Source: a virus
Virus record (IMG/VR): IMGVR_UViG_3300048035_000135
Coordinates: 1-64,000 of that record
DNA length: 64,000 bases
Strand: one strand, 5' to 3'
Positions 802 to 63,052 of this stretch are shown in pieces. Both the position numbers and the translations under genes were made by a program. The first letter of the stretch is position 1. Each line of letters opens with the position of its first letter. The notes beneath the pieces were generated by a model. The model did no database searches and had not been told where the DNA came from. It saw only the letters and a list, made by a program, of their open reading frames with translations.

Positions 802-833
802 CTAATATACGAATAATATTTGAATTAACCAAA
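802..833 (-). promoter_or_regulatory. Bacteroidota-type promoter
   Basis: TTTG-N20-TATATTAG; spacer similar to that at 315-346. Confidence 0.65.
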
Positions 834-872
834 TTTTAATGTTAAGAAATTGTTAAGTTTTCAACAAAGTTA

Positions 873-10950: not shown

Positions 10951-10958
10951 TATAAATA
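10951..10958 (-). promoter_or_regulatory. Putative late promoter motif TATTTATA
   Basis: About 45 nt upstream of the gp26-like start. Confidence 0.6.
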
Positions 10959-10980
10959 TACAAATATTATTAATTAAACG

Positions 10981-11051: not shown

Positions 11052-11540
11052 TTAGTATTGTAGTATTGCGTAATCGTATGAAAGTGTTAAATCTACAGTT
11101 GCTAAATCTTCACCAGTATAGTCCATATCTGAGAACTTTGCTGTTTGAATGAATGCTCCTTTTAATGTCCACTCTTCTACTTTATCACCAACAGGACCCA
11201 AACTGTTAAATGTGATATCTTTTTTGTAGAAGTCGGAGTAACCATCTCTACCTGTTACTGATTCGTGATGTAATCTTACCCACTCCATTGCTGCTTGCGC
11301 TGCTGATGGAACTACTGGGTCGTACAATGAAATTGTTAAATCACTCCACTCACTTCTTCCTTTTACATATCTTCTAACATTGATATGGTCGATGGTAACT
11401 TTACCATTTCCTATTTCTGGTCTGTTGGCTGCCTTTATTAAGTACGCTGGAATACCCTCAATGTACATAATAAATCTGTTCGACATCTTCGGTTCGAATG
11501 ATGTGAACATTACTTCTGTTGGGTCTAATAATTGTGCCAT
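11052..11540 (-). CDS. Tail tube protein (T4 gp19-like)
   Basis: FEPKMSNRF...W...LYDP...EEWTLKGAF...LSYDYA pattern; adjacent to the sheath gene. Confidence 0.9.
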   Translation of the reverse strand: MAQLLDPTEVMFTSFEPKMSNRFIMYIEGIPAYLIKAANRPEIGNGKVTIDHINVRRYVKGRSEWSDLTISLYDPVVPSAAQAAMEWVRLHHESVTGRDGYSDFYKKDITFNSLGPVGDKVEEWTLKGAFIQTAKFSDMDYTGEDLATVDLTLSYDYAILQY

Positions 11541-11634: not shown

Positions 11635-14037
11635 CTATTCTGGAAATGCTGCTCCAGTTGGTAATACATTGAAATCAAGTACTATAAACTCTGCTGTTTT
11701 CGCTGGTTGTAAGAATATCTCACCAACCATAATGTTTCTATCAATCACATCTGGAGTGTTGTTGGTTTCATCCATCTTCACTTTAAATGCGTATAAACCT
11801 TGTCTTTGTTGAATTGATTCTAAGTAAGGATTAACGATTGATAAGAATCTATTTCTCGTAGCTGCTGTGTTGTTTTCGAACACTAAGTAACGAGTAGATG
11901 ATGCGATGAATTTCTTCACTGCGATTAACAATCTTCTTACATTGATTCTATCCAATGCCGATGGTTTAGCTTGTAATGTTTTCTGTCCAAATACAGTAAC
12001 ACCTTGACCAGGGAATGTTGCGATAGGATTCAATCTACCTTCATAAAGTGAATCTCTCTCAACTCTAGTCAATCTTGTCTTAGCTTCAATTACTGAAGTT
12101 AATCCACCTCTATTCAATCCTGCAGGAGCGAACCACTCAGCGGCTACTTGGTCGTTAAATGCGATAACGCCAGGAAGTACAACTGATGGTGGCACCCATA
12201 CTGGTTTGTTTTTATCAGTATTAAGTATCTTAACCCAAGGATAGTAAGATGCTACATAGTTTGAATCAAATGCTTGAACTGCGTTAACAGCCGTTGAAAT
12301 TGAATCACTCCATGCAGATGCATCCATTACAAAGAATGTATCTTGTCTATCTTCACACATATCTTTAGCGAAAGTAGTTACTGCTGAGTGTAATCTGTGG
12401 ATAACACCTGGTAATACTAACATATTGATATCAAATTCATCAGGATTAGATACTGAATTGATTGCTTTTCTGTATGCTAATGTTCCTGCTGCTGTGTTAG
12501 ATGATAAATCATATCCTTGTGAGTTTCCTGATGATATATCGTTTCCTAATGAAACAACTCTCGATGGTTTGAATCCATCAAAACCACCTTGGAATGGTAC
12601 TAAGAACTTTCTAGAGTTAATAGAAGTTACTGCATCATTCAATGAAATTGCGCCTGTATTAGGTGCTGCTGATGATGGATAATTAGCTCCACTTTCTTGG
12701 TTGTAATCACCTAAGTAGAATGCCGTACCTACTGTAGCCGTAGCTGAATCAGGAGTTGGTGCTAAGAAGTTTCTATTATCTGTTACTGCAAAATCAAAAT
12801 CTAATCCGTAGAATTTCTTAGGATTGTATGAATTATTGATTTGTTGTGCTGATACATACGTTGGATTCGGTAATGAAAGTTTACTTCCGAATGGATTTTG
12901 TAATGCTCCAAATCCGAATGGTACTAATGATTCATCAATAGCTTTATTCTTAACTGCGTTTGAAGCTTCAACTCTAATATTTTCTGAGTTGTTAGCGTAA
13001 TCACCATTTGTTGATAATTTTCCATCTGCATCTACAGTAATGTATTTATCACCGATTACTCTAACAATGTAGTTTGGTGAATCAGGGTCTAAGTTAACAC
13101 CTTGGAAGGTTTCAACTAAGTTAGGTCTGATATCTGAATCAACTACACCTACGAATGGTGAACCAGCAATCTTATCTTGGTCAACTCTTCTTACTACTAC
13201 AGTAAATGAACCATACTCAGAACCTGGTACTGTACCAGCTGGTTTGATATCTTGAATACCGATTTTGAATTCGTAGTTAGTTGCTGTACCATGTGATAAG
13301 GTATGGAACTTAAATAAGTTAGTAGTGTTACCACCAACTTTTTGTGATGTAATAAATGGTGTTGATGCTTCCGTATATGCTTTACTATAATCAATATCTT
13401 TAGCAACATCAATTGTTACTACAGGAATCTCACCAGATTTAGCGAATGATGCTGATTGGAATGTTTTAAAGTTTGTTAAAACATAAGCTTCTTCCGAACC
13501 TCTAGGTGAAAATCCAAATGATTTAGTAAAATAATTATCATTTGTTGGATTTAACGATGCTGTAAAATCTTTTTCTGTTACTTCAGAACCATTTAATTTT
13601 AATGAGAACAACGATGCTGATACATCAGATGAACCATTATGGTCTGTAATTGTTGATGTGCCAAACACATCTGTATCTGATACCACTTCATGTGTTGGGT
13701 GTAATACTGCTACTACTTTACTACCATGCGATGATGATACTGTCAATGCTACTGGATTTTCAAGAGTATATCCATCTTGTCCTAATACCCTAACGATTGT
13801 TGCAGTACCAGCATCTTCCAAATAAGCTTGTGCAGTATATGGTAGATATGAATCTTCTGTCAATCCACCGAATACTTGTTGAAACTCTTGAAAAGATGAT
13901 ACTTTAGTTGGAACGAACGCAGGTCCTTTAACTGCTGAACCTATTAATGCTGCTCCAATTTCGCCAATCCCTTGAGGTAGAAATGACAAGTCCTTTTCTC
14001 TCGTAAATACTCCAGGACTTACTATTCTTTCTGCCAT
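11635..14037 (-). CDS. Tail sheath protein (T4 gp18-like)
   Basis: N-terminal SPGVFTREKD; C-terminal WFAPAGLNRG, GQKTLQ, DRINVRRL, FENN, PAKTAEFI motifs. Confidence 0.95.
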   Translation of the reverse strand: MAERIVSPGVFTREKDLSFLPQGIGEIGAALIGSAVKGPAFVPTKVSSFQEFQQVFGGLTEDSYLPYTAQAYLEDAGTATIVRVLGQDGYTLENPVALTVSSSHGSKVVAVLHPTHEVVSDTDVFGTSTITDHNGSSDVSASLFSLKLNGSEVTEKDFTASLNPTNDNYFTKSFGFSPRGSEEAYVLTNFKTFQSASFAKSGEIPVVTIDVAKDIDYSKAYTEASTPFITSQKVGGNTTNLFKFHTLSHGTATNYEFKIGIQDIKPAGTVPGSEYGSFTVVVRRVDQDKIAGSPFVGVVDSDIRPNLVETFQGVNLDPDSPNYIVRVIGDKYITVDADGKLSTNGDYANNSENIRVEASNAVKNKAIDESLVPFGFGALQNPFGSKLSLPNPTYVSAQQINNSYNPKKFYGLDFDFAVTDNRNFLAPTPDSATATVGTAFYLGDYNQESGANYPSSAAPNTGAISLNDAVTSINSRKFLVPFQGGFDGFKPSRVVSLGNDISSGNSQGYDLSSNTAAGTLAYRKAINSVSNPDEFDINMLVLPGVIHRLHSAVTTFAKDMCEDRQDTFFVMDASAWSDSISTAVNAVQAFDSNYVASYYPWVKILNTDKNKPVWVPPSVVLPGVIAFNDQVAAEWFAPAGLNRGGLTSVIEAKTRLTRVERDSLYEGRLNPIATFPGQGVTVFGQKTLQAKPSALDRINVRRLLIAVKKFIASSTRYLVFENNTAATRNRFLSIVNPYLESIQQRQGLYAFKVKMDETNNTPDVIDRNIMVGEIFLQPAKTAEFIVLDFNVLPTGAAFPE

Positions 14038-19115: not shown

Positions 19116-20234
19116 TTACGCCCAAATCCAAATATTACCATCTTGAGCTGCATCTACGTGGATGTTACCAATTTTTTGATAGTTTGTATCTGTTTTGGAA
19201 ATTGCCACTGCTGCTGCGTATGCATCTGATGCTATTGTTGTATCATTATAAGATGCTCCTGAGAAATCAAACGTCCATCTACTTGCTGATTCATCCCAAC
19301 CAAACGCTGTACCTTGTCCTTCAATAACAATACCACCATCTGCAGCAGAACCACCATCATTTAAGTTAATGAATTTGTCTGTTACATTTAAGTTAGTAGT
19401 ATTAACTGTAGTAGTTGTTCCGTTTACAGTAAAGTTTCCGGAAACTATAACATTATTTGAAAATGTTTTGTTACCAGCAACTGTTTGAGTTCCAGTTGTT
19501 CTTACAAAAGTAGATAAACTAGTAAGACCAGTACCACCATTTGCTACAGGTAGAGTACCTGTTACACCTGGAGCAATACTTGTTGTACCATCAAAGTTTA
19601 CAGCTGATGTACTTGCTAAGTTAGTTCTAATACTTGCACCACTTGCTAATGCTGTTGCAGTTGCTGCGTTACCAGTAGTATCTTGATTTAAAGTTCCTAC
19701 AACTAAATCTATATCTCCTGTACTATCTTGATATGTTGCTGTAATACCAGTTTCAGTATTAGTGGATGTGAACATCGCACCAACTATGTCTTGTACTTGC
19801 TCATTAGATAATTGGTCATTATCATTTGGAGTTGTTACTGAACCACCTAATGAAATAGCTGTACCATTAATTGTAATTGATGAGTTTGCTAATTCTGCGT
19901 TTGCAACACCACCATCTTTAATTGTTACTGCGCCTGATGATACACCGAAGTTAGCTGAACTAAACGATGCAACACCCTTTGCTGTTGTTGTTGCGTTATC
20001 TACTGATAATGCTACTGATGAATTACCACTTTGGTTAGCGGTGAATGTACCACTACCATTAAGTGCTCCTGACGTTGAAATGCTTAACTGTCCGTTTGCT
20101 GCGGATGTTAATCCTGTTAATTGTGAACCATCACCTACGAAGTAGGATGCGGTTACTGCTGCTAAATGTGCTTGTGAGCCAGATACGATTACTTTTTTCC
20201 AACCGCCTGTTGCTGCTCCTTCTCCACCTGCCAT
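19116..20234 (-). CDS. Fibre-like virion protein
   Basis: Shares N-terminus MAGGE..GGWKKVIVSGS with 17582-18781; GNFTVNGTTTTVNTTNLNVTDKFI fibre motif. Confidence 0.7.
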   Translation of the reverse strand: MAGGEGAATGGWKKVIVSGSQAHLAAVTASYFVGDGSQLTGLTSAANGQLSISTSGALNGSGTFTANQSGNSSVALSVDNATTTAKGVASFSSANFGVSSGAVTIKDGGVANAELANSSITINGTAISLGGSVTTPNDNDQLSNEQVQDIVGAMFTSTNTETGITATYQDSTGDIDLVVGTLNQDTTGNAATATALASGASIRTNLASTSAVNFDGTTSIAPGVTGTLPVANGGTGLTSLSTFVRTTGTQTVAGNKTFSNNVIVSGNFTVNGTTTTVNTTNLNVTDKFINLNDGGSAADGGIVIEGQGTAFGWDESASRWTFDFSGASYNDTTIASDAYAAAVAISKTDTNYQKIGNIHVDAAQDGNIWIWA

Positions 20235-26404: not shown

Positions 26405-28051
26405 TTACTGAATTCTGTTTAATGAATCAACAAATACTTTTCCGTAGAACTCACCTCTTAGCATTTTCTTAGCGTAACGAGTCATTACACCTTTTCTAGG
26501 AGTGAAGTTTTTCGGGTCATATACAAGAGGAGTCATAATTAACGGAATATATGGTGCATATACTGCTCCAGTTTCAAGGAATTGAGTTCCTCTATATCCC
26601 ATAAGGATTACGTTCTCTTTCATATAAGGATTCTTATAAACTTGGAATCTACTATTTAATGAACCAACTTTTGATACACCGAATGCAAATTGAGCATCAC
26701 CATTATCCGCTGAAGAAGCGTAACCTGGAATTGACTCAATGATTGTTGCAACATCTGGAGATACTACTAAGAAATTAGCACCACCTCTAAGAGTTTTTTG
26801 GTGAATAGAGTTAGATACACCAGCGATTACAGTTCCTAAAGTCTGGAACCATGCTCCCTGATTGAATGCAGATGCTCCATATTCTGAATCATCCATTGCT
26901 GCGAATGCAGAACCATTCCATACTCTACCAGCTTTAGCTGACCAGTATCCTACTGATTTAGCATCTTGCATTAACATGTCTAAGATTTCAAAATCAATTT
27001 CTTGCGAAATGTATTCTGATAACATAGAAGTTAATTCTGCTTCAGCATCAATTGAGTGATATGCGTTCAAATCTTGTGCGAATTCAGGAGTCCACTGTGC
27101 TTTTAACTTTCTAGTCTTAGCAACGATTGGTAAACTCTTCATTTCAACATTCAATTCTGGAATATCGATATCAGCTTCAGGATTGTTTCTTAAAGAAGTT
27201 CCTGTTGCTTCGAAATCACCTCTTGATGTATCAGTTGGTTGTGCGTGATACTTTACAGTAACATTATCAGCCGCATCAGCCACACCTTTTACTACGAAAG
27301 TTACATCGCCATCAGCGTTGATTGTAGTATATTGTGGGAATTGGTCTGTAATTTTAGAAGAAACAACTCTAAATCCTCTGATACCTTTTGAATCTGCATC
27401 AACGAATTCATCGTGGTGTACTGTTAATTTATATACTGAACCAGCAGCATCCATTAAACCAGCATTAGATGCTGAGAACGCTGTATCGTAGTTGTAATCA
27501 CCAGCAGATAAAGAACCAGTTGTGTATTGGTTTGCTGCTAATGTTCCGTTTACTACGTTGTTACCAGTTACTTTATCGTTGATTGAGTATCCGAATCTAC
27601 CAGCACCATACAAACCACCTGAAGGGTCTGAAGATGTTTCTGTGATACCGAATACAGAATCAGCTTGTGAATCTTTTCCAGAACCACTAGCGAAACCTGG
27701 CTGAGAAGTACCATATTTAAAGTCTAAGTAAAATACTAGACCTGATGGTAAGTTCATTGGTTGTACTGATACGAAATCTTTTGCTACGATTTCTGAGAAG
27801 ATTCTTCTTACTAATGGTAAAGCTACACCAGCCCACTCTTCAGAGTTTGCCGAAGTACCAGTAGCAGAAGCTTCTTTTACTAATTGTCTTGCTTGATTTT
27901 CTAAAAGAGTCGCAACACCAGCTTTTTCAACTTCGTTTCCGATTCCTTCAAGAAGACCGGTTTTCTCCCACTTACCAGCTAAAGCTCTTGTAGCTTCAGA
28001 TAGTCTCGCAGTGTGAGAAGAACCTTCATTTAAAATGTTTTTTAAATCCAT
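26405..28051 (-). CDS. Major capsid protein (T4 gp23-like)
   Basis: LLENQ, LPLVRR, VQPMNLPSGLVFYLDFKY, AKTRKLKAQWTPEFAQDLNAYHSIDAEAELT, YAPYIPL, GVMTRY. Confidence 0.97.
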   Translation of the reverse strand: MDLKNILNEGSSHTARLSEATRALAGKWEKTGLLEGIGNEVEKAGVATLLENQARQLVKEASATGTSANSEEWAGVALPLVRRIFSEIVAKDFVSVQPMNLPSGLVFYLDFKYGTSQPGFASGSGKDSQADSVFGITETSSDPSGGLYGAGRFGYSINDKVTGNNVVNGTLAANQYTTGSLSAGDYNYDTAFSASNAGLMDAAGSVYKLTVHHDEFVDADSKGIRGFRVVSSKITDQFPQYTTINADGDVTFVVKGVADAADNVTVKYHAQPTDTSRGDFEATGTSLRNNPEADIDIPELNVEMKSLPIVAKTRKLKAQWTPEFAQDLNAYHSIDAEAELTSMLSEYISQEIDFEILDMLMQDAKSVGYWSAKAGRVWNGSAFAAMDDSEYGASAFNQGAWFQTLGTVIAGVSNSIHQKTLRGGANFLVVSPDVATIIESIPGYASSADNGDAQFAFGVSKVGSLNSRFQVYKNPYMKENVILMGYRGTQFLETGAVYAPYIPLIMTPLVYDPKNFTPRKGVMTRYAKKMLRGEFYGKVFVDSLNRIQ

Positions 28052-28079
28052 TTTTTTTCTCCGTTATTAATCTTATTAA

Positions 28080-29147
28080 TTATTTTAAACCTGCTAGCTT
28101 TTTCCATCTAGCTGATAATTCATTGCCCTCAGAAATTATTTTCTTTGGTGCTGAACTTTTTGTTGCTTTTGAAGCAAATCCTTCTTTTACAACTGTTCTT
28201 TTCTTTTTAGCGACATTTAAGTTTTCAGCTAAAGTTGAGAATACTAATTTCACTTCTCTTACTGATGATGTTCTGTCGAAGTTTTCTAAAACTTTTACCT
28301 TTTGGTTTTCGTTTAAGTCGAAAGTTCTGAACAATTTGTTAGTATAAAGTAACTTAGCGTTCAACAAATTCACTTCATTAATAGTTTTTTGTAAACTCTT
28401 AATTGTTGAATATGCTTCTTCTAACTCAGTTGCCATATCTTCATCTTCTTCATCCATTTCATCTTCTTCATTCATGTCCTCATCAGATTCTTCCATCTCT
28501 TTCAAAGTTTTAATAACTTCTTCTAAATCGATGTTTTCATCTTCTTCGTCCATTTCATCTTCTTCGTCCATTTCATCAGCTGTTTCGTGATAATTTTCAT
28601 CATTTTCATCTGCTGATTCATAATTTTCATCATTTTCATCTGCAGATGCCATTTCAGCTTCTAATTCTTCGATTACAGATTCTAAGTCTAACTCATCATC
28701 TTCATCTTCTTCAGCTTCCATTTCTTCTTCAGCTTCTTCTGAATCCATATCATCCATTTCATCTTCCATAGAATCTTCTTCAGAATCATCAGACATTTCG
28801 CCTTCTTCTTCATCCATTTCATCCATTTCATCTTCTTCAGATACTACGTCATCATTTTCACTCTCTTCCGGAGCATCAATCAAATTATCATCATTTGGAA
28901 CATCAGATGAATCAGATGCGTCATCAGATGGTTCAGCGTTATCGCCAGCACCTAAATCAGATGAATCTAATTCTTCTTCCATTTCATCTTGCTCATCAGC
29001 ATCTTCTGCTAATTTAGCTGAAATCATTGATTGTAACTTCGGAGTGAATGCCTCTTCTAAAGCCAACTTAGCGTTTGCAAGAGCAGTTTCTTTAACGGCT
29101 TTAGCATCAGCGATAGCTTCAGATAACAAATCTTTTCTATTTGCCAT
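28080..29147 (-). CDS. Prohead core/scaffold protein (gp22-like)
   Basis: Highly acidic centre, ends WKKLAGLK, lies directly upstream of the capsid gene. Confidence 0.75.
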   Translation of the reverse strand: MANRKDLLSEAIADAKAVKETALANAKLALEEAFTPKLQSMISAKLAEDADEQDEMEEELDSSDLGAGDNAEPSDDASDSSDVPNDDNLIDAPEESENDDVVSEEDEMDEMDEEEGEMSDDSEEDSMEDEMDDMDSEEAEEEMEAEEDEDDELDLESVIEELEAEMASADENDENYESADENDENYHETADEMDEEDEMDEEDENIDLEEVIKTLKEMEESDEDMNEEDEMDEEDEDMATELEEAYSTIKSLQKTINEVNLLNAKLLYTNKLFRTFDLNENQKVKVLENFDRTSSVREVKLVFSTLAENLNVAKKKRTVVKEGFASKATKSSAPKKIISEGNELSARWKKLAGLK

Positions 29148-29175
29148 AGTTGTTCTCCTAAATTGTTTTTGGAAA

Positions 29176-29242
29176 TAAGATTATTGAGAATCTTAATAGA
29201 ATATTATTACTAATATATTTTAATCATCTATTGGGAGATGAT
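29176..29242 (-). promoter_or_regulatory. Twin hairpins in the scaffold/capsid leader
   Basis: Two 7-bp stems (29176-29195 and 29223-29242) with different stem sequences and near-identical 6-nt loops C(C/U)CAAU on the mRNA. Confidence 0.5.
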
Positions 29243-29301
29243 ATTTTTATCTACAATAAATAGTGTACTATAAATGAAAACACTAAAAAAGTGTTTACTA
29301 T

Positions 29302-29562
29302 TTAATTTTCAAGCATCCTACGTCTGTATTCTGCTCTCACTGCTTGTTGCATTTTCTTTCTTTTGACAGCTGAAGGTTTGATATACTCTTTCCTATCTTT
29401 GAGTTCTTCAATCTTACCACTATCCTTTAATTTTCTTTTGAATGCTTTTAAGGCTAGTTCAATATTACCATTAACTACTTTTACGCCTGTTGCACAACCT
29501 GGTATATCCATATCTTCTCGCCTAATTTTTTTGTAAGGTCTTTTTTGTCTGTTATCTTGCAT
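29302..29562 (-). CDS. rpsU: Phage-encoded 30S ribosomal protein bS21
   Basis: VKVVNGNIELALKAFKRKLKDSG..EELKDRKEYIKPSAVKRKK is the S21 signature; basic N-terminal extension. Confidence 0.9.
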   Translation of the reverse strand: MQDNRQKRPYKKIRREDMDIPGCATGVKVVNGNIELALKAFKRKLKDSGKIEELKDRKEYIKPSAVKRKKMQQAVRAEYRRRMLEN

Positions 29563-29573
29563 ATAATGTTATT

Positions 29574-29614
29574 TAAAAAAAATACACCTATCACATTATT
29601 GTGGTTAGGTGTAT
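29574..29614 (-). terminator. Terminator-like hairpin immediately upstream of bS21
   Basis: ATACACCTA...TAGGTGTAT stem followed by T8 on the minus strand. Confidence 0.65.
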
Positions 29615-29641
29615 ATAAATATCAAAATTATTTTAGTAAAA

Positions 29642-32911: not shown

Positions 32912-33529
32912 CTAAATAGAACAAACACCATCAATTTCACAGATGATATCTCGTACTAATGTATTAATCTTTTTATATGAAGGTGTTTTTGCCTTTCCAA
33001 CTACTGATTCGTTCATGGGTCTCATAAATGCGCCATGTGTTGATGGGTTTGAAACAAAATCCCAACAAATTAAATCAAAATCATCTTCTACAGTAACAGA
33101 TTTACCATTACTAGCTTCTTTTACAGAACCCATACCTCTTGAAGAGATACCAACAGTACAACCTGCCTCTAAAAGTTCTTTAAGGATGTTCCCTGCTGGA
33201 GTTTTAAGTATTTCTACCTTACCCATCACATCATCACCCTTCCAATATACTTCTCTGATGATATGTGAAGTGTTTTTTAGTTCAACTACCGAAGATTCAG
33301 GATGGTCTAACTCACCAAACGCTCTATTTTCTTTGATTTCTCTATTTTTGTATTTATCCACTTCTCTTTCTAAGATTGAACGTGGATAAACTCTACCATT
33401 TTGATTTTCAGCTTCAGCACGTTGCAGGACACCATTAACAATCAACCTACCATTGTTATCTTCCAATGATTCATTGATTTGCCTCTTAGTCATAGTAAAA
33501 GGAATTGTATCTATAAGTAATCTTCCCAT
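32912..33529 (-). CDS. Prohead protease (T4 gp21-like)
   Basis: NQNGRVYP, GELDHP, SHII, GISSRGMGS, DFVSNPS. Likely start MGRLL at 33529. Confidence 0.95.
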   Translation of the reverse strand: MGRLLIDTIPFTMTKRQINESLEDNNGRLIVNGVLQRAEAENQNGRVYPRSILEREVDKYKNREIKENRAFGELDHPESSVVELKNTSHIIREVYWKGDDVMGKVEILKTPAGNILKELLEAGCTVGISSRGMGSVKEASNGKSVTVEDDFDLICWDFVSNPSTHGAFMRPMNESVVGKAKTPSYKKINTLVRDIICEIDGVCSI

Positions 33530-35050: not shown

Positions 35051-36922
35051 TTAAGAATCCAATATGTTTTTCTCATCCAATAATGATAAACTTTCATCAT
35101 TGGTGTCCTCTTTTAACGATTCTATTATTATTTTTTTGGTTTTTCTATTAGATTTCATACGTCCAATAACTGCATCAATCTGTTCTTGATTGATAACGGA
35201 AGTAGCGTTATATCCTTCAGGTCTTATATCAATACTTTTGTTACCTAAAGGGTCTCTACCGAATGGTGATTTATCTTTACCATACGTTCCACCTTCCTTA
35301 GGTCTACCAGCACCTTCAAATCCCCCTTCAGGAGCTCCACCTTTGTTTTCACCGAATGCCCCACCAGCATCACCACCACCTTCTTGTGTTGTTAGTGCTG
35401 CTAAATCATGTGGTGTACCAAATGATTCTCCAGTCTTAACTGGGTCATTACCTTCTTGCTCAATCTGTTCGTGTCTGAATCCTAATTTCAAATCATTGAT
35501 AACTTTGAATTGTTCTTCTTTCCATTCATCTTCACTCATATTAAAGATGTTTTTGTAAACCCACTCTTGTGATACCATTCTTAAATCTTTGATATCACTT
35601 GCTAATGATACTTTTTCAGACCAAAGGTTTGCTTTTTCTTGCTCATAAATAATAGATGGAGTAGTAAGTTCTAATTCAAAGTTTACCAACTCTTCATCTG
35701 TATAACCTTGTGAGTATAAGTGTACAATTGCAATCTTAGTTAATTCTGAAAGTACAATCTTTTGGATTCTTTCTACAGAACGAGCAAATCTAATATCTTC
35801 TTGCGCTAATGTTGCTTTACCTTCAACACCTTCTTCGTATCCAATAAATGCTTTTGGAACTTTAAGTGCTGCCATCATTCTGTTTCTTAGGTATTCGATA
35901 TCATCAATACCACCAAACTCCATTCCACTTAGAGAATCAATCTCAGTACCACTTTGTCCACCTCTAACAGGTAAATAGTAATCTTCCAACATATTCTGCA
36001 TATTGAATTTAAGATTGTAATCACCAGTAGTTTCATCAATGTATGGAGTTTTCTTCATCTGGTCGATGATGTTACTCATATATGAATCAACCTCAGCAGG
36101 TGGAATATTACCAATATCAATTTTGAAAATTCTCTTTTCAGGTGCTCTCATAATTCGATGAATCATCATCGCATCTTCCATAAGAGTTAATTGTTTCCAA
36201 GTCTTTCTTGCACCTTCTAACAATGAACGTCCATAAGGTAGGAAGTTTGTATCTGTTAATAATCTGAAATGTGCTACTTGGAATGATTCTAAAAACTTAG
36301 TGTTGTTTCTTTGTGAAATTGCATTTGTGTTTTGTTCTTCAACCTCAAATCTTACTGAATAAGGATTATCTAAATCATATCCTTCTTCTCTTCTCGTTTC
36401 ATATGCCGATAGTGGTTGTGCGTTTACAACACCTAACTCATCATCAATATCTAAGTAAAGATAGTAATCACCATATTTGTTCATACCTCTTACCCAAGAC
36501 CATAAGTTGAACTCAATGTTCAATACATCATAGAATAAGTTTCTTAATGTTTTCTTTAATTTTTCATCAGATGATTTAACTCTAAGTACATCACCCATAT
36601 CGTTTTTAAGTGTACACTCATCTGAGTATATATCTAAGATTGATGAGATAATAGAATCTTTATCCATTGCCTCATAATCTGTATATAGTTCTAATTTATT
36701 CGAATGGTAGTTAAATCTTTCATTGTATGTTTGCCAATTCTTTCTTGAGTTAGAACCATGCAATCTTCCATACCTATCATAGTAAGCTGAACCTCTTCTA
36801 TTACCATCACTTTGTAATCTTGAAGAATCAACAACTTTTAATTTATCTTTACCGACTCTTCTAACAACTACCTGAGTTGAGAATAGTCTCTTTAATCTAC
36901 CGAATAATGAAGTATCTGCCAT
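35051..36922 (-). CDS. Portal protein (T4 gp20-like)
   Basis: LMEDAMMIHRIMRAPEKRIFKIDIGN, MLEDYYLP.RGG..GTEI..L.G, ALKVPK. Confidence 0.95.
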   Translation of the reverse strand: MADTSLFGRLKRLFSTQVVVRRVGKDKLKVVDSSRLQSDGNRRGSAYYDRYGRLHGSNSRKNWQTYNERFNYHSNKLELYTDYEAMDKDSIISSILDIYSDECTLKNDMGDVLRVKSSDEKLKKTLRNLFYDVLNIEFNLWSWVRGMNKYGDYYLYLDIDDELGVVNAQPLSAYETRREEGYDLDNPYSVRFEVEEQNTNAISQRNNTKFLESFQVAHFRLLTDTNFLPYGRSLLEGARKTWKQLTLMEDAMMIHRIMRAPEKRIFKIDIGNIPPAEVDSYMSNIIDQMKKTPYIDETTGDYNLKFNMQNMLEDYYLPVRGGQSGTEIDSLSGMEFGGIDDIEYLRNRMMAALKVPKAFIGYEEGVEGKATLAQEDIRFARSVERIQKIVLSELTKIAIVHLYSQGYTDEELVNFELELTTPSIIYEQEKANLWSEKVSLASDIKDLRMVSQEWVYKNIFNMSEDEWKEEQFKVINDLKLGFRHEQIEQEGNDPVKTGESFGTPHDLAALTTQEGGGDAGGAFGENKGGAPEGGFEGAGRPKEGGTYGKDKSPFGRDPLGNKSIDIRPEGYNATSVINQEQIDAVIGRMKSNRKTKKIIIESLKEDTNDESLSLLDEKNILDS

Positions 36923-36952: not shown

Positions 36953-36986
36953 TATAAATATACAAAAAATATTTTTAATATCCAAA
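36953..36986 (-). promoter_or_regulatory. Overlapping host-type and late-type promoter motifs upstream of portal
   Basis: TTTG-N20-TATATTTA overlaps TATTTATA at 36953-36960. Confidence 0.55.
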
Positions 36987-36988
36987 TT

Positions 36989-38557
36989 TTATAGTAACCA
37001 ACTTATATCCTCATCACCTCTACCAGTATTAATCTTCCAAGCATCTTTTGCTTTAGATTGATTTGTTTTAAAAACACCCTGCTTAGATGTTAAGGATAAT
37101 GCTCTTTTATTTAATTCGATTCCCTGCTGTCTTAATTTAAGTGCCGTATCTCTTACCCAAAGTCCTGTTGAAAATGATAATACTAAATCATCATTATAAC
37201 CTTGTTGAGCTTCAGCTCTATTACCATTCCATATAAAAACAAAAAGTTCATCAATCAATCGTTTAGAACGAACAATCGGAACTCTTTCTCTCATATAAGT
37301 ATCTAACTTTGAGATAACTAATGGACGTGTTCTACTTGTCATTGAAAAACCAGGTACCATTTGTGATTTATCTTTTAAATCATATGCTTTTTGTAAATGA
37401 ATATCTTCATCTACATATCCAAACTCTTTGTATGAATAATATAAGTTTTTGTAATTTCTATCTATTGCTTCTTGGATTACTGCCCAACCAATATTTGCGT
37501 TCTCAATCACTAATAGAGCATCGTTCCATTCAGTTGCAACATTTACTAACATATTACCATAATCTTTAGTACCTATCTTACCTTTATATTCTGCTACTTG
37601 CTCTACACTTTCTACATCAAATACGTGAAACGCTGAATAATCTGCACCATCACCTCTCGCAACATCGGCAACCACTACATAATCTTTTGTATAGTTTGGT
37701 TGTGACCATAACCAATAATTACCATCGTATCCTCGTTTCTCTACTGGGTCTTGAACATGGGTTTCTTCATACCATTGTAGAAGTTGTCCATCTACGACTG
37801 TGTAACCAGATGAAATAAAATCACAATCACATTCTTGTGCTGCCATCTTCTCACCTAAGAGTTGAGTTTGTTCTGCTCTCCACTTATCATTTCTTTCAGG
37901 ATGTACAGTCCAATGAAGTTTGATTGGATTCCATCCATCACCCTCTTCACCTTTAATCCAAGTTTTATGAAAGAAGTTACCAACACCATTTGGAGTTGAT
38001 AATACGATTGCCTTTCCACCAGTTGATAATGTAGATTGAGCTGATGCCCATATCTCATCAATACCTTTAATAAATGCACCCTCATCTATAATCAACATTG
38101 ATAATGCTTCAGAACGACCTGCATCACCACTAGCTGATGTTGCTTTGATTGTTGAACCATTTCGTAATCGTAAGGATAGTTTGTTATCTTCTTCAGTATC
38201 ACCCCTTAACCAACTCGGTAAGTTTTCATGCATATACCTAACCTTAGTAACTAAGTTTTTAGCTACCTCTTGCTTAGTTGCGATTACCAATATATTTTTA
38301 TCATCGTGGAATAACATCATCCATAAAGAATAACCAGCGGATAATGTTGAGATACCTAATTGACGGGATTTAAGAATTACATTATATCTATGTTTATCTA
38401 ACTCACCCATTACATCTTCTTGAAATGGATACAAATCAAAAAGTATCTTACCTCTCTTTGGGTGTTGAATGTAACAATACTTTTTAAAAAAGTAAACTGG
38501 GTTTTTAGCACATTTAACGTACTCTTCCCTAATAAGTTCTTTTATGTTTTTGCTCAT
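36989..38557 (-). CDS. Terminase large subunit (T4 gp17-like)
   Basis: KSRQLGIST Walker A, LIIDE Walker B, STPNG, ADVARGDGADYS, NDDLV. Likely start MSKNIK at 38557 (ATGA overlap). Confidence 0.95.
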   Translation of the reverse strand: MSKNIKELIREEYVKCAKNPVYFFKKYCYIQHPKRGKILFDLYPFQEDVMGELDKHRYNVILKSRQLGISTLSAGYSLWMMLFHDDKNILVIATKQEVAKNLVTKVRYMHENLPSWLRGDTEEDNKLSLRLRNGSTIKATSASGDAGRSEALSMLIIDEGAFIKGIDEIWASAQSTLSTGGKAIVLSTPNGVGNFFHKTWIKGEEGDGWNPIKLHWTVHPERNDKWRAEQTQLLGEKMAAQECDCDFISSGYTVVDGQLLQWYEETHVQDPVEKRGYDGNYWLWSQPNYTKDYVVVADVARGDGADYSAFHVFDVESVEQVAEYKGKIGTKDYGNMLVNVATEWNDALLVIENANIGWAVIQEAIDRNYKNLYYSYKEFGYVDEDIHLQKAYDLKDKSQMVPGFSMTSRTRPLVISKLDTYMRERVPIVRSKRLIDELFVFIWNGNRAEAQQGYNDDLVLSFSTGLWVRDTALKLRQQGIELNKRALSLTSKQGVFKTNQSKAKDAWKINTGRGDEDISWLL

Positions 38558-56414: not shown

Positions 56415-59400
56415 CTATAAATATCTAATTGATGAAAATCCACCTAATTTTGTAATATCTATAATTTGGTCTACCATATCTCTCGTTTTATCAATGTGAG
56501 ATATAGTAACTATGAAATCAAATTGATTCTTCAGGTAATCAAATAATAAATATAAAGAATTAAAGTTATCAGTATCTAATGAACCAAACCCCTCATCAAT
56601 TGCGATAAAGTTTGGACGGGGTAAATTTGATACATTTACCAATGCCGTTCTGATGGCTACTGATGAAATAAACTTTTCCATCCCACTAGTCAATTCTAAT
56701 GGCCAATATTCTTCAGTTCCATATGCAATATATGAATTAATATTCTTACCATCTGTATTTAGAAGGATTTGGAAATCTACAATTGGTTGTAATATATTAT
56801 TAATCTCTACTTCTAATTTAGGAAGTATCTCTGAGATTAATTCATATGGGATTCCATCTCTTCTAACACATTGTAAGTAGTATTCATATCCTTCATACTT
56901 TTGTTCCATCTCTTCTAACTTATCGATAGAATCATTTACAGTTTGTATTACATTCTCTGAAATACGAATATCACCATTGATATCAATTATATCATCATTT
57001 AAGTTAGAAATATCAACATCTAAATTATCTAAAGAATCTTTTGCTTTATCAATTTTTTGTTGTATCTTTGTATTATGCTTTACTGATGCTTTTTGTTCTA
57101 ATGATTTATTTATATTATTTTCTGTTGAATCTAATTTACTTTTTAACTCTGATAGTTCTAAGTTGCAAGATTTATTTGTTAATTGTAATTTTTCTATTTG
57201 ATTAGTTAAATCATCGGATTGTGTTTTCAGTTCTTGAACTGTAACCAACACTTCTCTAACATCGTACTTAAACATTTCCGATTTCATATCGATGATTTCT
57301 TCACTTAATCTATTTGATTTTAGTTTTAACTTTTCGATATCATCAGATAATGTTTTTGATTTTTTAGCGAATGGTGTATTTTGATTCTTTACACAATGTT
57401 CACAATTATCATCAAATGTTAACTGCCCAATTCCTTCTAAATGTTCTTCTTTATGGTCTATATCAGTATTAATAGAATCTAAAGAATGAGTAATCTCTTC
57501 CAATCTGTTAACATAGGATTGGTGTTTTAAGTGATTTTGTTTTAAAAGGTTTAAATCATATGATGTGTATGTTTCATTGACTCTATCTAAATCTTTAGTT
57601 AAAGTTTCAATATCTGTAACATACCCATTACATTCTTTTGATTTATCTACTATTTGTTGTTTTAATTCTTTTTTAAGTTCTCTAAGAGAATTTGTATCTA
57701 TTATTGTATCATCTACAGGTTTTAAATCTGATACTAAATTATCTTTGGTTTCTCTTAACTGATTTCTTTTATCTTTTAACTTAGATAACTTATCATTATG
57801 TTTAATTAGTACCTTTTCATTCTTTTGTAAATCTTCTTTTGCTTCCACTAACTTATCAGTAAAGTTTTGATTCTTATAATCTTTTAGTAAAGCACTTAAC
57901 TCTCTAATCTCATCATTAGCTATTTGATACAATTCTTCAAATACATTCATATCTAAAAATTGAGCAAGAAGTTCTTTCTTCTCTCTTTGTGATTTCTCAA
58001 TGAACCCACCACTATTAGATTGATTAGACATTGCTGTAAGAATGAAATCTTCATACGAACCAACATACTGTCTGATTATAGAGTTTGTATCTCTTCTCTC
58101 TTCACCATTTAGAGATTCAGTAGAACCATCTTCGTTTATCCTATAGAAGTTTACATCAACCTTTACAGTTCCCCTCTTAGGCGATTTCTTACCAACTCTT
58201 TCTATAAAGTAATCAATACCATTAATCTCAAAGTTAAACTTACAATCAAACTTTGATTTAGAATAGTTCAATACATCTAATGCTTTATTTGTACGAGAAC
58301 ACTTATCAAATAAACAGAATGATAGAGCATCCCATAATGATGATTTACCACTAGCGTTTGGGGCAAAGATTCCATATGCTCCTTTCATTTGTGAAAAATC
58401 AACTATGTTGTTTGTACCATATGAAAACATATTAGAGAACTCAAATGTTTTTGGTTTCCATATAATGTTTTTCATTCCGTGAACACCACCCAACTTATTG
58501 TTTATATCTTGATTGATGTTTCGTATCACTTCCATTTGTTCATCAGCGATGATGTACTTATCCGATAGATACTTTTCCATCATTTTATTTTGGAAACCAA
58601 TATCTCTTACGTTTTGTAATGTAATGTTTGAATCACCAATAGAATCTTTTCTATCTGATAATACTTTTTGAATCGTTAGTTCTTGTACTTTTCTACCAAT
58701 CTTAACCTCTGATATAATTTTCTTTAGTTGTGATTGAGTTGTATCTTTTACTCTAACTCTCATACGAGGTTTGTTAGGTATCGTTGGATTACCTATCAAC
58801 TTACCATTGTCAACATCTAAGGTTACATATCCATAATCGTTATGAATCGGAACAAACTCTGATTCTTTGGTTTCAACATCCCATACCAAAATACCATGCT
58901 CAGGATATTTAGCTTCGGCATGATTCTGCATAATCGTAGAACCACAATACTTAATCGTACCCTCATCATTTAGTGATTGATTTGGAACGTGGATATCACC
59001 CAATAGAACTAAATCATATCCATCGAATGAATCTACCTTTACGTTTTTGTTTTCTAATTGAAACCCATATTCTGTTTTTACCTTATCTACAGGAGCATGA
59101 TATAAAGCAATCTTATAATCACCATGCACTTCTTCAGATGGGATAATCTCTTTTACATCACCAAAAACAGATGAGTGTGAAAAGGAAATTCCACCCATTT
59201 TCCAAACTCCATCATCTTTTAGATAATGTAGATTTGAATGATTCAATGCGTTTACGATTGGTGATAATGCATCTAATCTATTTGGATTGTTTAGATTGGC
59301 ATCGTGATTACCTGGTATCATAATTGTTGGTAATAAATCCGATAGGTTTTTTAGAAATGTTTGAGTCATTTCTATAACCTCAGGAGTCATATCCGTTTTT

Positions 59401-59588
59401 GCGTGAACAATATCTCCACATAATACAATGATGGAATCATCAGTCTTTGTAGTGGAAATATAATCATAAAGATGGGAAAATACTTCCCTATATTCTTTAT
59501 GTCTTTTTAAATTTCTGATATGTACATCAGCGATGTGGTAAATCTTTTTGATTGTACCATCATACTTTATTCTCTTCGATTTTCTCAT
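56415..59588 (-). CDS. Fused Mre11/SbcD nuclease and Rad50/SbcC ATPase (gp47-gp46-like)
   Basis: ADVH, GDIVH, GNHD, GDIH phosphoesterase motifs; APNASGKS Walker A; CEHC zinc hook; SGMEKF signature; IDEGFGSLD Walker B. Confidence 0.92.
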   Translation of the reverse strand: MRKSKRIKYDGTIKKIYHIADVHIRNLKRHKEYREVFSHLYDYISTTKTDDSIIVLCGDIVHAKTDMTPEVIEMTQTFLKNLSDLLPTIMIPGNHDANLNNPNRLDALSPIVNALNHSNLHYLKDDGVWKMGGISFSHSSVFGDVKEIIPSEEVHGDYKIALYHAPVDKVKTEYGFQLENKNVKVDSFDGYDLVLLGDIHVPNQSLNDEGTIKYCGSTIMQNHAEAKYPEHGILVWDVETKESEFVPIHNDYGYVTLDVDNGKLIGNPTIPNKPRMRVRVKDTTQSQLKKIISEVKIGRKVQELTIQKVLSDRKDSIGDSNITLQNVRDIGFQNKMMEKYLSDKYIIADEQMEVIRNINQDINNKLGGVHGMKNIIWKPKTFEFSNMFSYGTNNIVDFSQMKGAYGIFAPNASGKSSLWDALSFCLFDKCSRTNKALDVLNYSKSKFDCKFNFEINGIDYFIERVGKKSPKRGTVKVDVNFYRINEDGSTESLNGEERRDTNSIIRQYVGSYEDFILTAMSNQSNSGGFIEKSQREKKELLAQFLDMNVFEELYQIANDEIRELSALLKDYKNQNFTDKLVEAKEDLQKNEKVLIKHNDKLSKLKDKRNQLRETKDNLVSDLKPVDDTIIDTNSLRELKKELKQQIVDKSKECNGYVTDIETLTKDLDRVNETYTSYDLNLLKQNHLKHQSYVNRLEEITHSLDSINTDIDHKEEHLEGIGQLTFDDNCEHCVKNQNTPFAKKSKTLSDDIEKLKLKSNRLSEEIIDMKSEMFKYDVREVLVTVQELKTQSDDLTNQIEKLQLTNKSCNLELSELKSKLDSTENNINKSLEQKASVKHNTKIQQKIDKAKDSLDNLDVDISNLNDDIIDINGDIRISENVIQTVNDSIDKLEEMEQKYEGYEYYLQCVRRDGIPYELISEILPKLEVEINNILQPIVDFQILLNTDGKNINSYIAYGTEEYWPLELTSGMEKFISSVAIRTALVNVSNLPRPNFIAIDEGFGSLDTDNFNSLYLLFDYLKNQFDFIVTISHIDKTRDMVDQIIDITKLGGFSSIRYL

Positions 59589-60517
59589 ACACCTAATAAC
59601 TTATACTCCATTAACTTTCTTAACGAAAGTAATTCGGTATTGCCTATTTCATTATAAATTTTTTCAAAACCTAATTCTGATGGGTCTGAATCTCCCATCT
59701 CAACAATGTGTACATCAATACCATTGTTCATTAATTCTTCTGCAAATCTAAGTGAGTTTTTAAATGCATCTGAATCTAATGCCAAATACACTTTTCTTAC
59801 ACCTTTACTGATTATCTTCTTTTGTAATTCTGATTGTGGTGATTTACCGAATAGTGGAATACTATTCATTCGGATTGCCATAGCATCAAATGCCCCCTCA
59901 CATATAACAATTGGTAAATCCCAATTGATAAACATCTCAAATCCCACAACATCTTTTGATACATTTGGGTTCTTATGTTTAAAACTACTATCGTAAAAAC
60001 TTCTACCCACAAAATAGTTTAACATACCATACTCATCATAAGATGGTACAATTACTTTATGTTTGTACGGGCCTTCTTCACAATAACCTATTTGGTACTT
60101 TATTATCTCTAATGAGGTTACACCCCTTCTATCTAAATAAGACAACGCATGCTTTCTTATAACGGATGTGGAAGGTTTCCATAACGGAATATATTCTTTG
60201 GGTAATTGAACTACCTTAGATTCTTCGGTAGTTACATCAGTTCTGTATCTATATTTTCTACTGAAAATAGAATTATGTTCATCCCAAATCTCTTTAGATA
60301 CTTTAAGTTTTCTAAATAGAGAACGGATTGATTTACCTTTTTCATCAGAAATCCAACAATGCCAAGGGTTATCTGCATTAGAGTTTAACTTAATGTTTAT
60401 CTCTAATTTAGGTTTATGATGGTTCACAAATGGTGACCAAAAGGCATAATTATCACCTGATGTTTTCTTAGCTTTTCCTAAGACAGATTCTAATAAAGAG
60501 AGTAGTCTTTCTTCCAT
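59585..60517 (-). CDS. DNA primase (DnaG/gp61-like)
   Basis: YLDRRG, YFVGR, ICEGAFDAM, LALDSDA TOPRIM motifs. Likely start MEERLL at 60517. Confidence 0.85.
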   Translation of the reverse strand: MEERLLSLLESVLGKAKKTSGDNYAFWSPFVNHHKPKLEINIKLNSNADNPWHCWISDEKGKSIRSLFRKLKVSKEIWDEHNSIFSRKYRYRTDVTTEESKVVQLPKEYIPLWKPSTSVIRKHALSYLDRRGVTSLEIIKYQIGYCEEGPYKHKVIVPSYDEYGMLNYFVGRSFYDSSFKHKNPNVSKDVVGFEMFINWDLPIVICEGAFDAMAIRMNSIPLFGKSPQSELQKKIISKGVRKVYLALDSDAFKNSLRFAEELMNNGIDVHIVEMGDSDPSELGFEKIYNEIGNTELLSLRKLMEYKLLGV

Positions 60518-60524
60518 ATTAAAG

Positions 60525-60556
60525 TAAATATACAAAAAATATTTGAATTATCCAAA
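60525..60556 (-). promoter_or_regulatory. Bacteroidota-type promoter for primase and Mre11-Rad50
   Basis: TTTG-N20-TATATTTA; ATG 7 nt downstream. Confidence 0.65.
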
Positions 60557-60973
60557 AAATTTCTTAGTTGGTTTTTCATCTATCCATTCTTGTGGGATTT
60601 CTTTCTTTGCCCATTTGAATCCGTTCTTCTCACACCATTGTGCATATGTGGTTTTAGAACCTTTGTATATTTTACCATTTGGGGATTGTAATACGAACCT
60701 TAAATCCATATCAGGATTTTGTTCTTTGATTAATAAATGCTTCTTTCTATCTTCGGGTAAAAACCATCCTTTAGATTCTATATAAATATCGTTAGGTAAT
60801 CTAAAATCGGGTTTGTAAGAATGAGTAGTTGCTGGAATTGTATAGGATACTTCGTGCTCTTCGTATTCACCATCAATACCTTGTGCTTTAAGTTGTTCAT
60901 CTATGCGAGTTTCCAACCCACTTTTGTGTCCCTTCATCTTTTGGATGTGAGACCAATTTCCTTTTTTATTCAT
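60548..60973 (-). CDS. T7 endonuclease I-like Holliday junction resolvase
   Basis: KSGLE, YKPDF.L, IESKG.F..EDRKKHLLIKEQ.P..DLRFV, TTYAQWCEKNGF. Confidence 0.9.
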   Translation of the reverse strand: MNKKGNWSHIQKMKGHKSGLETRIDEQLKAQGIDGEYEEHEVSYTIPATTHSYKPDFRLPNDIYIESKGWFLPEDRKKHLLIKEQNPDMDLRFVLQSPNGKIYKGSKTTYAQWCEKNGFKWAKKEIPQEWIDEKPTKKFFG

Positions 60974-60988
60974 AACTTATTCTTTTTT

Positions 60989-63052
60989 TTATTTTGCGTA
61001 TCCACCATAATTTACATTAGGGTCTTTTGGATTATTCGTTGGTTTTCCTGGAGGTTCGGTTGGGGTTTCATCAGGTAAAACATTATCTTGCTGTAACTGA
61101 TTTTCATCCATTGATTGAGTATCAAAAGCTTCTCCAAAATTACCATCAACTAAAATATCAGGTTTATCTAACTTATTCCAAATGAATCTACCATCACCCA
61201 TATCAGTAATAGTTGCAGTTCTACCACTCATTAAAGAACCAGTGCCTGGTGCTCCAAACGGGCCATCCATATCTAATCTAACCTTAACAGTTATATCTAC
61301 ATCACTTCTATTTTGAATAGCTGATGCTAGTTTACCAATTGCAACTAAATCACCATTTGGATTGTATAATCCAATTGTTGTAAAGTAGTTTCTGAAATCA
61401 GAACCTGTAACAAATGATTTTAGTATCGAACTATTAACATCATTGTTCTTTTTTAATGTTGGGTTTTGAGATACGTTAAATTCATTCTGACCAACTTCAC
61501 ATAATATGTTTACTTCATGTAGTTGTTTGGTTGATTTATATTTTGTTTGCCAACCATAGTTAGAACCTATTCCCTCTTGTCCACTTTGAATATTACCATA
61601 ATCCCACGTACCAGTTTGCCCAGTCCAAACATATCTGTATTTTGGTCTTGGGTCTGATACTACCATTATTCCGTGATTGTAAAATACTTCACCAACTACA
61701 TTCGTTTGATATGCTGAACCAGTTAGGTAATCATTGTTTGATAATCCTTCAATTTCAGATTTAGTTAATCCCCTATTGTATATACGGAACTCATCCAATG
61801 AACCACTAAGTGAATTATGACTTGATAATACATCAAATCCACCTGGTAAGGTTTTACTACCTAACAAAATATCATATTCGTTGGATATACCTCTGAGTGT
61901 TATAGAACCACTATCATCAGTTGGTAACGAACCCGTTACTTCTTTAACACCATCAACCCATAGTTCCATATGAGAACCTGTTTTGTTAAAACATATATGA
62001 TGTGCCGTATTATCATTTATTTTGGTTGTTGAATCTGTAATGATACTAGTGTTTCCGTTTGATAAGGATATTCTAACTTTTCCGTTATTAGAACTTTGAT
62101 TTTGGTTGTGAACTTCTATATCAAATGGAAATATTGGAGTTTCTCTATTTCTTCTAAACAGAGTTGGGTATGCATATCTATTTTCTCCAAACTCTTTGTT
62201 AGTACCCCTTTTAGATACTATTGAATTATAATTTTTCGAAACATCTTTTTGTTGTGTTGGTAAAACTGCCCATATTGATACTGAGTAATCTGATGTTGCG
62301 AAGAAGTTATAATTTTTGTTATGGTCTATTCTAATATAAGAATCAGAACCATTGAATGTTGCTTTAGTTCCAGATGGTAATTGGAAATCGCCTGTTGTTT
62401 TTATACCATCTGTATATGATATATTACTTCCATATGCGTGATGAATATAACCACTCCTATCTTCTATTATTTTATCAAGCTTAGTAGTTCTATTTACAAC
62501 CTCATCATTGAATCCCCAATAACCAACCAAATTTCCAAATGGAACATATGAACCAGTATCCAATCCATCATCATATAAATGGCCGTGAAACTCATCAACT
62601 TTTTTATCTTTTATAATTATGGAATCACAATTAGATGAGGTCATAGAAAAATCTATAACTTCAATTGTATTACATCTTATACCATCACCTAATCTGTTTT
62701 GAGGAATAGAGAATATAGATGCGGATGCGTATAAATCTCTTTCAGCTCTAGGTCTATGTTTAAAAAACATTTGGTTAAGGCTTGACCATACAACCTTTTG
62801 ATGTTTTATTTTTAAAAAATCTGTATTGGAAGAATCAGAGTTATCAATCTGGTCAATTTCTCTGTACGCTGGTAAACTTATTGATTCCGAAACATTTATT
62901 TTTTCACCAAAGTTTGGGGATATACCTTTTATTACGGATGTCTGATATGAATCTGTTCGTTGATTTATATCAGTAACTACCCATCTTTTATAGGTGTTGA
63001 ATGGTCTTAGTTGTATGCCACCCCCATTGATTGGTTTGTAAGCTGTTGCCAT
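60989..63052 (-). CDS. LamG/concanavalin-domain virion (baseplate-type) protein
   Basis: LVGYWGFND, ATFNGSDSYI, LDEFRIYNRGL LamG motifs; C-terminal TTIGLYN..GDLVAIGKL. Confidence 0.7.
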   Translation of the reverse strand: MATAYKPINGGGIQLRPFNTYKRWVVTDINQRTDSYQTSVIKGISPNFGEKINVSESISLPAYREIDQIDNSDSSNTDFLKIKHQKVVWSSLNQMFFKHRPRAERDLYASASIFSIPQNRLGDGIRCNTIEVIDFSMTSSNCDSIIIKDKKVDEFHGHLYDDGLDTGSYVPFGNLVGYWGFNDEVVNRTTKLDKIIEDRSGYIHHAYGSNISYTDGIKTTGDFQLPSGTKATFNGSDSYIRIDHNKNYNFFATSDYSVSIWAVLPTQQKDVSKNYNSIVSKRGTNKEFGENRYAYPTLFRRNRETPIFPFDIEVHNQNQSSNNGKVRISLSNGNTSIITDSTTKINDNTAHHICFNKTGSHMELWVDGVKEVTGSLPTDDSGSITLRGISNEYDILLGSKTLPGGFDVLSSHNSLSGSLDEFRIYNRGLTKSEIEGLSNNDYLTGSAYQTNVVGEVFYNHGIMVVSDPRPKYRYVWTGQTGTWDYGNIQSGQEGIGSNYGWQTKYKSTKQLHEVNILCEVGQNEFNVSQNPTLKKNNDVNSSILKSFVTGSDFRNYFTTIGLYNPNGDLVAIGKLASAIQNRSDVDITVKVRLDMDGPFGAPGTGSLMSGRTATITDMGDGRFIWNKLDKPDILVDGNFGEAFDTQSMDENQLQQDNVLPDETPTEPPGKPTNNPKDPNVNYGGYAK

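Follow-up and report, generated by a model that had tools for sequence, protein, structure and literature searches.

Genes and leaders at the bS21 locus

The stretch analysed here (the window) was the first 64 kb (64,000 nucleotides, nt) of IMG/VR virus record IMGVR_UViG_3300048035_000135, a 95,863-bp sequence with a CheckV completeness estimate of 52%. It is a fragment of a T4-like myophage, and the minus strand holds all real genes of the 96-kb fragment; coordinates below are those of the plus strand. Its head-gene block contains a gene for ribosomal protein bS21 (29302–29562), and many of its late genes are preceded by Shine-Dalgarno (SD) motifs. The bS21 gene is flanked by the protease and polyprotein genes on one side and by the scaffold and capsid genes on the other, and it shares its strand with every other gene. 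The gene of the acidic scaffold-like protein (28080–29147) had AGGAG at -12 to -8 (29155–29159), and that of the gp23-type major capsid protein (26405–28051; Pfam Gp23, E 1e-77) had GGAG at -11 to -8 (28059–28062). The translation start region of bS21 itself (29563–29582) consisted of T and A only and lacked an SD (free energy, dG, +2.3), as the initial annotation had stated; its leader was SD-less in 86% of 78 relatives.

The predicted 86-amino acid (aa) protein matched Pfam PF01165 over profile positions 2–54 of 55 (E 7e-12, 45.3 bits against a cut-off of 27), which bears out its first identification as bS21. By phmmer it matched the bS21 chains of many solved ribosomes, the top matches being 9i5v (best) and 7jil of Flavobacterium johnsoniae. 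Bacteroidia-type bS21 is ~63–64 aa long and has no N-terminal extension; the phage protein is longer and carries a basic extension of ~22 aa ahead of the S21 core, conserved among relatives, so that 36 residues precede the conserved Ala, versus 14 in 7jil_z. The AlphaFold2 model had a predicted local distance difference test score (pLDDT) of 85 (82–87 in the extension), with helices at residues 34–48, 50–56 and 63–85. The C-terminal part of Bacteroidia-type bS21 is less basic than that of other phyla. Of the 22 residues that follow KPS in the phage protein, 8 are basic and 2 acidic, versus 4 basic and 1 acidic in the aligned 19 residues of F. johnsoniae; the tail of the 9i5v bS21 also has KRKK.

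A start was counted as SD-led when the region -20 to -4 could pair with ACCUCCUUU at -4.5 kcal/mol or stronger; the start of every open reading frame (ORF) was its first ATG, chosen without use of the SD. SDs were found at 33% of starts, versus 13% of other coding-strand ATGs and 5% of antisense ones. Of the 54 genes assigned to the late block from position and homology, 54% had an SD, versus 5% of 39 other genes (Fisher p=3.8e-7), in agreement with the late/early split proposed earlier. A division by promoter class gave SDs in 10/19 genes behind the late motif TATTTATA versus 0/8 behind host-type promoters. Late leaders showed a G frequency of 0.39–0.57 at -11 to -8; at -13 to -10 of early leaders, G did not exceed 0.08 and A was 0.56–0.77. 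SD-led initiation calls for a motif that complements the 3′ end of 16S rRNA, lies 5–10 nt upstream of the start and exceeds the background, and the late motifs agree with this.

The individual motifs listed by the initial annotation were all present: AGGAG before starts 14037 (sheath), 16979 (gp13-like), 20234, 29147 (scaffold) and 32901 (polyprotein); GGAG before 28051 (capsid), 11540 (tube) and 56384 (giant fibre); and GAGGA or AAGGA before 21922, 34993, 18781, 45996 and PhoH (ATG 26295). The protease (33529) and a second polyprotein gene (30871) were also SD-led. SDs were absent, as claimed, from the primase (60517), the endonuclease/resolvase (60973) and the portal (36922). SD-less genes of the late block comprised the portal, those starting at 42649, 14411, 19079 and 3566, and bS21.

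Co-distribution of bS21 and SD motifs among relatives

Three capsid-based scans of IMG/VR yielded 136 non-redundant usable loci, 85 with bS21 (~1.4 kb upstream of the capsid gene) and 51 without, the latter counted only where 4 kb or more of sequence preceded the capsid gene. The mean SD-gene fraction was 0.49 in bS21-positive and 0.08 in bS21-negative loci, and the capsid gene had an SD in 95% of the former versus 4% of the latter, so SDs do track bS21 among relatives. G at -11 to -8 was 0.32–0.37 over 1071 genes of bS21-positive loci, versus at most 0.11 over 638 genes of bS21-negative loci. Leaders of the latter showed A peaks at -12/-11 and -3, and A at -3 is a Kozak-like determinant in F. 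johnsoniae (PMC6847099).

SD status was gene-specific within the bS21-positive loci. SDs preceded the capsid gene in 95% of loci and the scaffold gene in 93% of the 85, followed by gp13-like (61%), PhoH (59%) and protease (56%); they were scarce before bS21 (14%, Mel-JY01 group only), terminase (8%) and portal (4%). SDs thus track high-copy virion proteins, as had been proposed, a pattern consistent with an enhancer read during infection and matched to copy number.

In two complete bS21-less genomes, in which no S21 match was found genome-wide, the same late promoter motif was present, but SDs followed it in 0/24 and 0/21 cases. SDs were mostly absent, too, from bS21-less lineages nested in the bS21-positive clade (the L069 group, L085 and the L262 group). 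The orthologous capsid, tube, sheath and protease leaders had GGAG or AGGAG here and in phage Mel-JY01 (PP395634.1) and were G-free in Flavobacterium phage vB_FspM_immuto (MW353175; "immuto" below). On the capsid tree the bS21 and SD traits each changed ~6 times.

A separate observation concerned the 735-kb phage LR756501.1, in which the bS21 gene (L298, ~19940–20160) was preceded by AAGGAGG, as in host rpsU, and a family of small genes near bS21 carried GGAGG.

Promoters, host and gene layout

A late-promoter-like TATTTATA was found at 29614–29621 (minus strand), 52 nt upstream of the bS21 ATG. Twenty-two of the 24 window copies of this motif lay on the coding strand, and none of 100 shuffled sequences reached 24 copies; in the genome, 20 of 25 copies ended at most 120 nt upstream of a start. 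A conserved hairpin with a T8 run (29575–29614, minus strand) lay between the motif and the bS21 start. RNAalifold on 15 relatives predicted 12 pairs, 8 of them with compensatory changes; a terminator scanner missed this hairpin, its loop being longer than 8 nt. In this subclade TATTTATA ran straight into the hairpin and U-run, ~20 nt ahead of the ATG. The hairpin looks like a terminator and probably serves as an insulator against upstream read-through: it may halt transcripts coming from the upstream polyprotein genes, with motif-started transcripts escaping, or it may be an attenuator. In our favoured reading of the locus, bS21 forms its own late transcription unit within the head-gene block.

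Early genes followed TTG-N19-20-TTCGTATATTTG/TAG. Within it stands TAnnTTTG, the -7 element of Bacteroidota promoters. One such element, TTCGTATATTAG, lay at 802–813 (minus strand) with TTG 20 nt upstream, and further early promoter elements were found at 315–326, 60525–60536, 36955–36966 and 10953–10964. The loose pattern TTG-N18-21-TAnnTTWG was uninformative, antisense matches being equally common; the extended consensus TTYGTAYWTTWR with its upstream TTG was strand-specific. The full -33/-7 motif had a coding to antisense count of 11:1 here; two close relatives with near-complete genomes gave 25:0 and 14:0, and immuto gave 11:0. Genes just behind early promoters had an SD in 0/9 cases here and in 1/21 and 1/11 cases in the close relatives G001 and G002.

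Three further promoter features were observed. Several early promoters had a CAATTTCTTAACAT box just upstream of the -33 element, at 839–852 (minus strand) of the window and upstream of starts 83904, 88925 and 91780 of the genome; the box may act as an UP-like element or as a binding site for a regulator. The SD-less portal gene was preceded by overlapping early-type (TTTGG-N-TTTGTATATTTA) and late (TATTTATA) motifs at 36953–36966 (minus strand), which suggests that portal expression begins ahead of the late phase and continues through it. In the relative G003 and in immuto, many late genes had TATTTATA only 4 nt before the ATG (TATTTATAGTAT ATG), suggesting that their late mRNAs are leaderless or near-leaderless.

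The early promoter consensus was the same as in the Flavobacterium phage immuto, and a Bacteroidota host, assumed by the initial annotation, is accordingly likely; the class is probably Flavobacteriia. The solved bS21 structures nearest to the phage protein point the same way, since they include that of F. johnsoniae (7jil), whose signature Tyr is also present in the top match, 9i5v. A scan of cellular genomes with the thymidylate synthase gave 7 matches, the best to a Flavobacteriaceae metagenome-assembled genome (MAG; 49% identity) and three others to Rhodothermales or Bacteroidetes MAGs, a weak and method-limited result. Mel-JY01 has a capsid of the same family as the Flavobacterium phage; the capsid of this window was 61% identical to that of Mel-JY01 and 56% to that of immuto. 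Mel-JY01 also carries three well-formed Bacteroidota-type promoter motifs, and its host label may deserve a check; no paper on this phage was found in the literature.

Late-gene identities were obtained from PHROG and Pfam searches, and the late (virion) gene block extended over 1587–56384 by PHROG annotation. Besides the capsid and scaffold genes it comprised the SD-led prohead protease (32912–33529), sheath (11635–14037) and tube (11052–11540), the SD-less portal (35051–36922), the large terminase (36989–38557) and several baseplate and fibre genes. An SD-less non-virion island followed at 56415–63052, of which 56415–60973 encoded an SbcC-like nuclease, a primase and an endonuclease. The 687-aa ORF at 60989–63052 had been read as a polymerase, which is wrong: it encodes a ConA-like/LamG lectin domain, with a weak PHROG match to a virion protein. 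A DNA polymerase was not found anywhere in the 96 kb.

Past the window, 64–80 kb held baseplate and fibre genes, and 80–96 kb held small non-virion genes (ThyA, ClpP, GroES, Hsp20, a MoxR-like AAA protein and an endonuclease) and two tRNAs. ClpP (PF00574, E 2e-31), the MoxR/CbbQ-like AAA protein and a 716-aa peptidase-like protein lay at genome positions 80923–81564, 87642–88925 and 89323–91473. A tRNA scan found none in the window; adjacent tRNA-Ala(TGC) and tRNA-Ser(TGA) genes lay outside it, at 95257–95421 (minus strand) of the genome.

A candidate role for phage bS21, its alternatives and known systems

In F. johnsoniae, whether the 3′ tail of 16S rRNA is held by bS21, bS18 and bS6 decides whether SDs are read, and a change of ribosome composition redirects translation (PMC7797042, PMC9976891, PMC13000457, PMC13000453). 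Contacts between pocket and tail offset the free energy that SD pairing provides; mutations of the bS6 or bS18 pocket that leave bS21 bound release the tail, and weakened SDs then work (PMC13000457). A bS21 variant that binds without holding the tail would therefore suffice.

Our tentatively favoured explanation, for which the co-distribution is the evidence, is that phage bS21 retunes host ribosomes so that SD-led late genes initiate better. Its SD-less start would be translatable by ordinary, SD-blind host ribosomes, and such a leader fits a message that needs translation ahead of any ribosome conversion. The protein would then occupy the place of bS21 on host 30S subunits and leave the 16S rRNA 3′ tail free for pairing, and late mRNAs with an SD of 4–6 nt at -14 to -8 would initiate better. 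Output would be graded gene by gene, with an SD nearly always on capsid and scaffold and nearly never on portal and terminase. We hold a little more loosely the fuller version, in which the N-terminally extended phage protein would unlock the sequestered anti-SD of Bacteroidia ribosomes, early genes being read by native SD-blind ribosomes and late virion genes preferentially by converted, SD-reading ones, with yield set by the presence of an SD.

Several observations weigh against this explanation. The closest deposited relative, Mel-JY01, the one bS21-positive relative in culture, was deposited as a Microcystis phage, and no bS21-positive member has a proven Bacteroidota host. The contrasts were few: among 5–6 independent pairs on the capsid tree, SDs went in the same direction in 3.7 on average and never in the opposite one, and the sign test on these pairs (median p 0.125) cannot reach significance. 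L292 and L297 had a capsid SD but no bS21 nearby, and L065 had bS21 and almost no SD. One complete Tyr-type genome, G003, had only weak AAGGA sites, mainly on head-block genes. No SD pattern was found in the other bS21 phage lineages LR756501, LR756502 and LR756508, and the link is therefore specific to this clade. Half of the SD-rich relatives, moreover, retain the Tyr or Phe thought to hold the anti-SD in place.

Some of these points could also mean that the hosts of the bS21-positive clade read SDs unaided, being not SD-blind Bacteroidia or only partly blind, and that the SDs tune late yield. bS21 would then do something else, for example in ribosome supply after host shut-off or in competition for ribosomes, and its co-occurrence with SDs would reflect shared ancestry or host clade. 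The few independent contrasts, the SDs of L292 and L297 and the lack of SD enrichment in other bS21 phages all agree with this, as does Mel-JY01, deposited with a cyanobacterial host, in which 24% of early genes had an SD and bS21 itself had AAGGA. However, this phage, G001 and G002 share Bacteroidota-type early promoters with a proven Flavobacterium phage, and the genes behind these promoters were SD-less. Early leaders were also SD-depleted relative to background (5% versus 13%), which is unexpected in an SD-reading host, and the Bacteroidia signature Tyr or Phe occurs in half of the clade's bS21 proteins. We consider SD-reading hosts unlikely, though the most serious of the alternatives.

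It is less likely still that loss of host bS21 during infection, by host shut-off or by a phage protease such as ClpP, frees the anti-SD. bS21-less ribosomes would then read the late SDs, and the late synthesis of phage bS21 would serve some other end, for instance to restore function or to block the rpsU feedback of the host. F. johnsoniae ribosomes without bS21 do read SDs (PMC9976891, PMC13000457), and McNutt et al. speculated on a protease targeting host bS21. ClpP, the MoxR-like AAA protein and the 716-aa peptidase-like protein occurred in 4/4 bS21-positive genomes examined and in 0/2 bS21-negative ones, but this co-occurrence holds only at the clade level. bS21 is essential in F. johnsoniae, and its loss would leave unexplained both the tracking of SDs with bS21 and the conserved SD-less bS21 leader.

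The initial annotation had placed the cause in the residue at Tyr54. In F. johnsoniae this Tyr forms a stack with A1534, at the point where the 3′ tail of 16S rRNA bends into the pocket of the platform, and it is a phylum-level signature (PMC7797042). Alignment does put Arg76 of the phage protein in the column of Tyr54 of 7jil_z and of the Tyr of 9i5v_9, so the signature Tyr is replaced, and Arg could abolish the stacking and free the anti-SD. Tyr79, however, lies three residues further on (RAEY), and W or Y stands at this +3 position in most Arg-type relatives. Among relatives the column held R in 33, Y in 35, F in 11 and K in 4, and the SD-gene fraction was 0.50 in the 33 Arg-type loci versus 0.48 in the 46 Tyr/Phe-type loci (p 0.24). 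L031, with 82% capsid identity to this phage, has Tyr at the column, yet 53% of its genes had an SD. Arg-type loci had a slight excess of strong SDs (0.24 versus 0.19; p 0.04 with no correction for phylogeny). Because Tyr/Phe-type relatives are just as SD-rich, the substitution is not the switch; it was ruled out as explanatory variable, and we consider it quite improbable that the exchange of Tyr54 for Arg releases the anti-SD.

Better candidates are the N-terminal extension or other features common to all SD-associated phage bS21 proteins. In every SD-rich locus the conserved Ala of bS21 was preceded by 24 residues or more, compared with 14 in the cell protein and with 21 and 14 in the SD-poor L065 and LR756508; these very few cases hint that a non-minimal bS21 goes with SDs.

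Finally, it is very improbable that the G-rich motif is a late RNA-processing or protein-binding signal rather than an SD: it is confined to late genes, and a weak GAGA-like motif occurs at the same place in LR756508, but it complements the 16S 3′ end, also precedes internal operon genes, and keeps a constant place at -14 to -8 relative to the start codon, although it may lie anywhere from 14 to 77 nt from TATTTATA.

No ribosomal protein is found in phages more often than bS21. Bacteroidia have kept the anti-SD conserved, yet rpsU is the only cellular gene known to use it. Should phage bS21 indeed open the anti-SD, it would have a defined function, and phage takeover would include a new kind, in which the mRNA-selection site of the ribosome is remodelled rather than host mRNA destroyed, with temporal control of the phage programme at the level of initiation. 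A literature search found no paper combining phage bS21, SDs and late genes. The present analysis adds the rejection of the Tyr-to-Arg switch, a per-gene account of SD conservation, the promoter-hairpin-U-run unit before bS21 and the counter-examples.

Among known systems, the freshwater Bacteroidetes myophages of Chen et al. 2022 (ISME Commun 2:31, PMC9723584) come close. They have a predicted Bacteroidetes host, late expression of bS21 and, as here, bS21 in the head block (terminase-portal-protease-capsid), and the authors proposed that translation of structural genes is favoured. Their bS21 lies on the opposite strand, whereas here it shares the strand of the structural genes, and all 61 of their proteins keep Tyr54 or another aromatic residue, unlike Arg76 here. 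Ribosome-binding sites were not analysed in that paper; "RBS" and "ribosome binding" never occur in it. In huge phages, rpS21 likewise has a basic or aromatic N-terminal extension, and Al-Shayeb et al. 2020 (PMC7162821) raised the idea that phage mRNAs are thereby preferred at initiation; that study drew no link between S21 and SDs and linked rpS1 to missing SDs. In the huge phages that we checked, no SD enrichment was found near bS21.

The capsid of immuto, whose host is proven, is 56% identical to that of this phage; the two also agree in the synteny of the head block, in the early promoter consensus and in the late motif TATTTATA. Unlike this phage, immuto has no bS21 anywhere in its genome, and its SDs are depleted at starts (4.6% versus 19% background), with G-free capsid, tube and sheath leaders. 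A swapped bS21 variant is reported to change which mRNAs are translated well in Francisella tularensis (PMC9578407, PMC12262407); these variants are cellular paralogs, with no phage involved, in a host that is not SD-blind.

Anti-SD sequestration and rpsU autoregulation in F. johnsoniae (PMC7797042, PMC9976891, PMC13000457, PMC13000453) involve the same ribosomal site and the same logic. There, ribosomes without bS21 read a single gene, rpsU, whose SD is 13 bp long; here dozens of late genes carry short SDs, and the added phage bS21 is the proposed agent.

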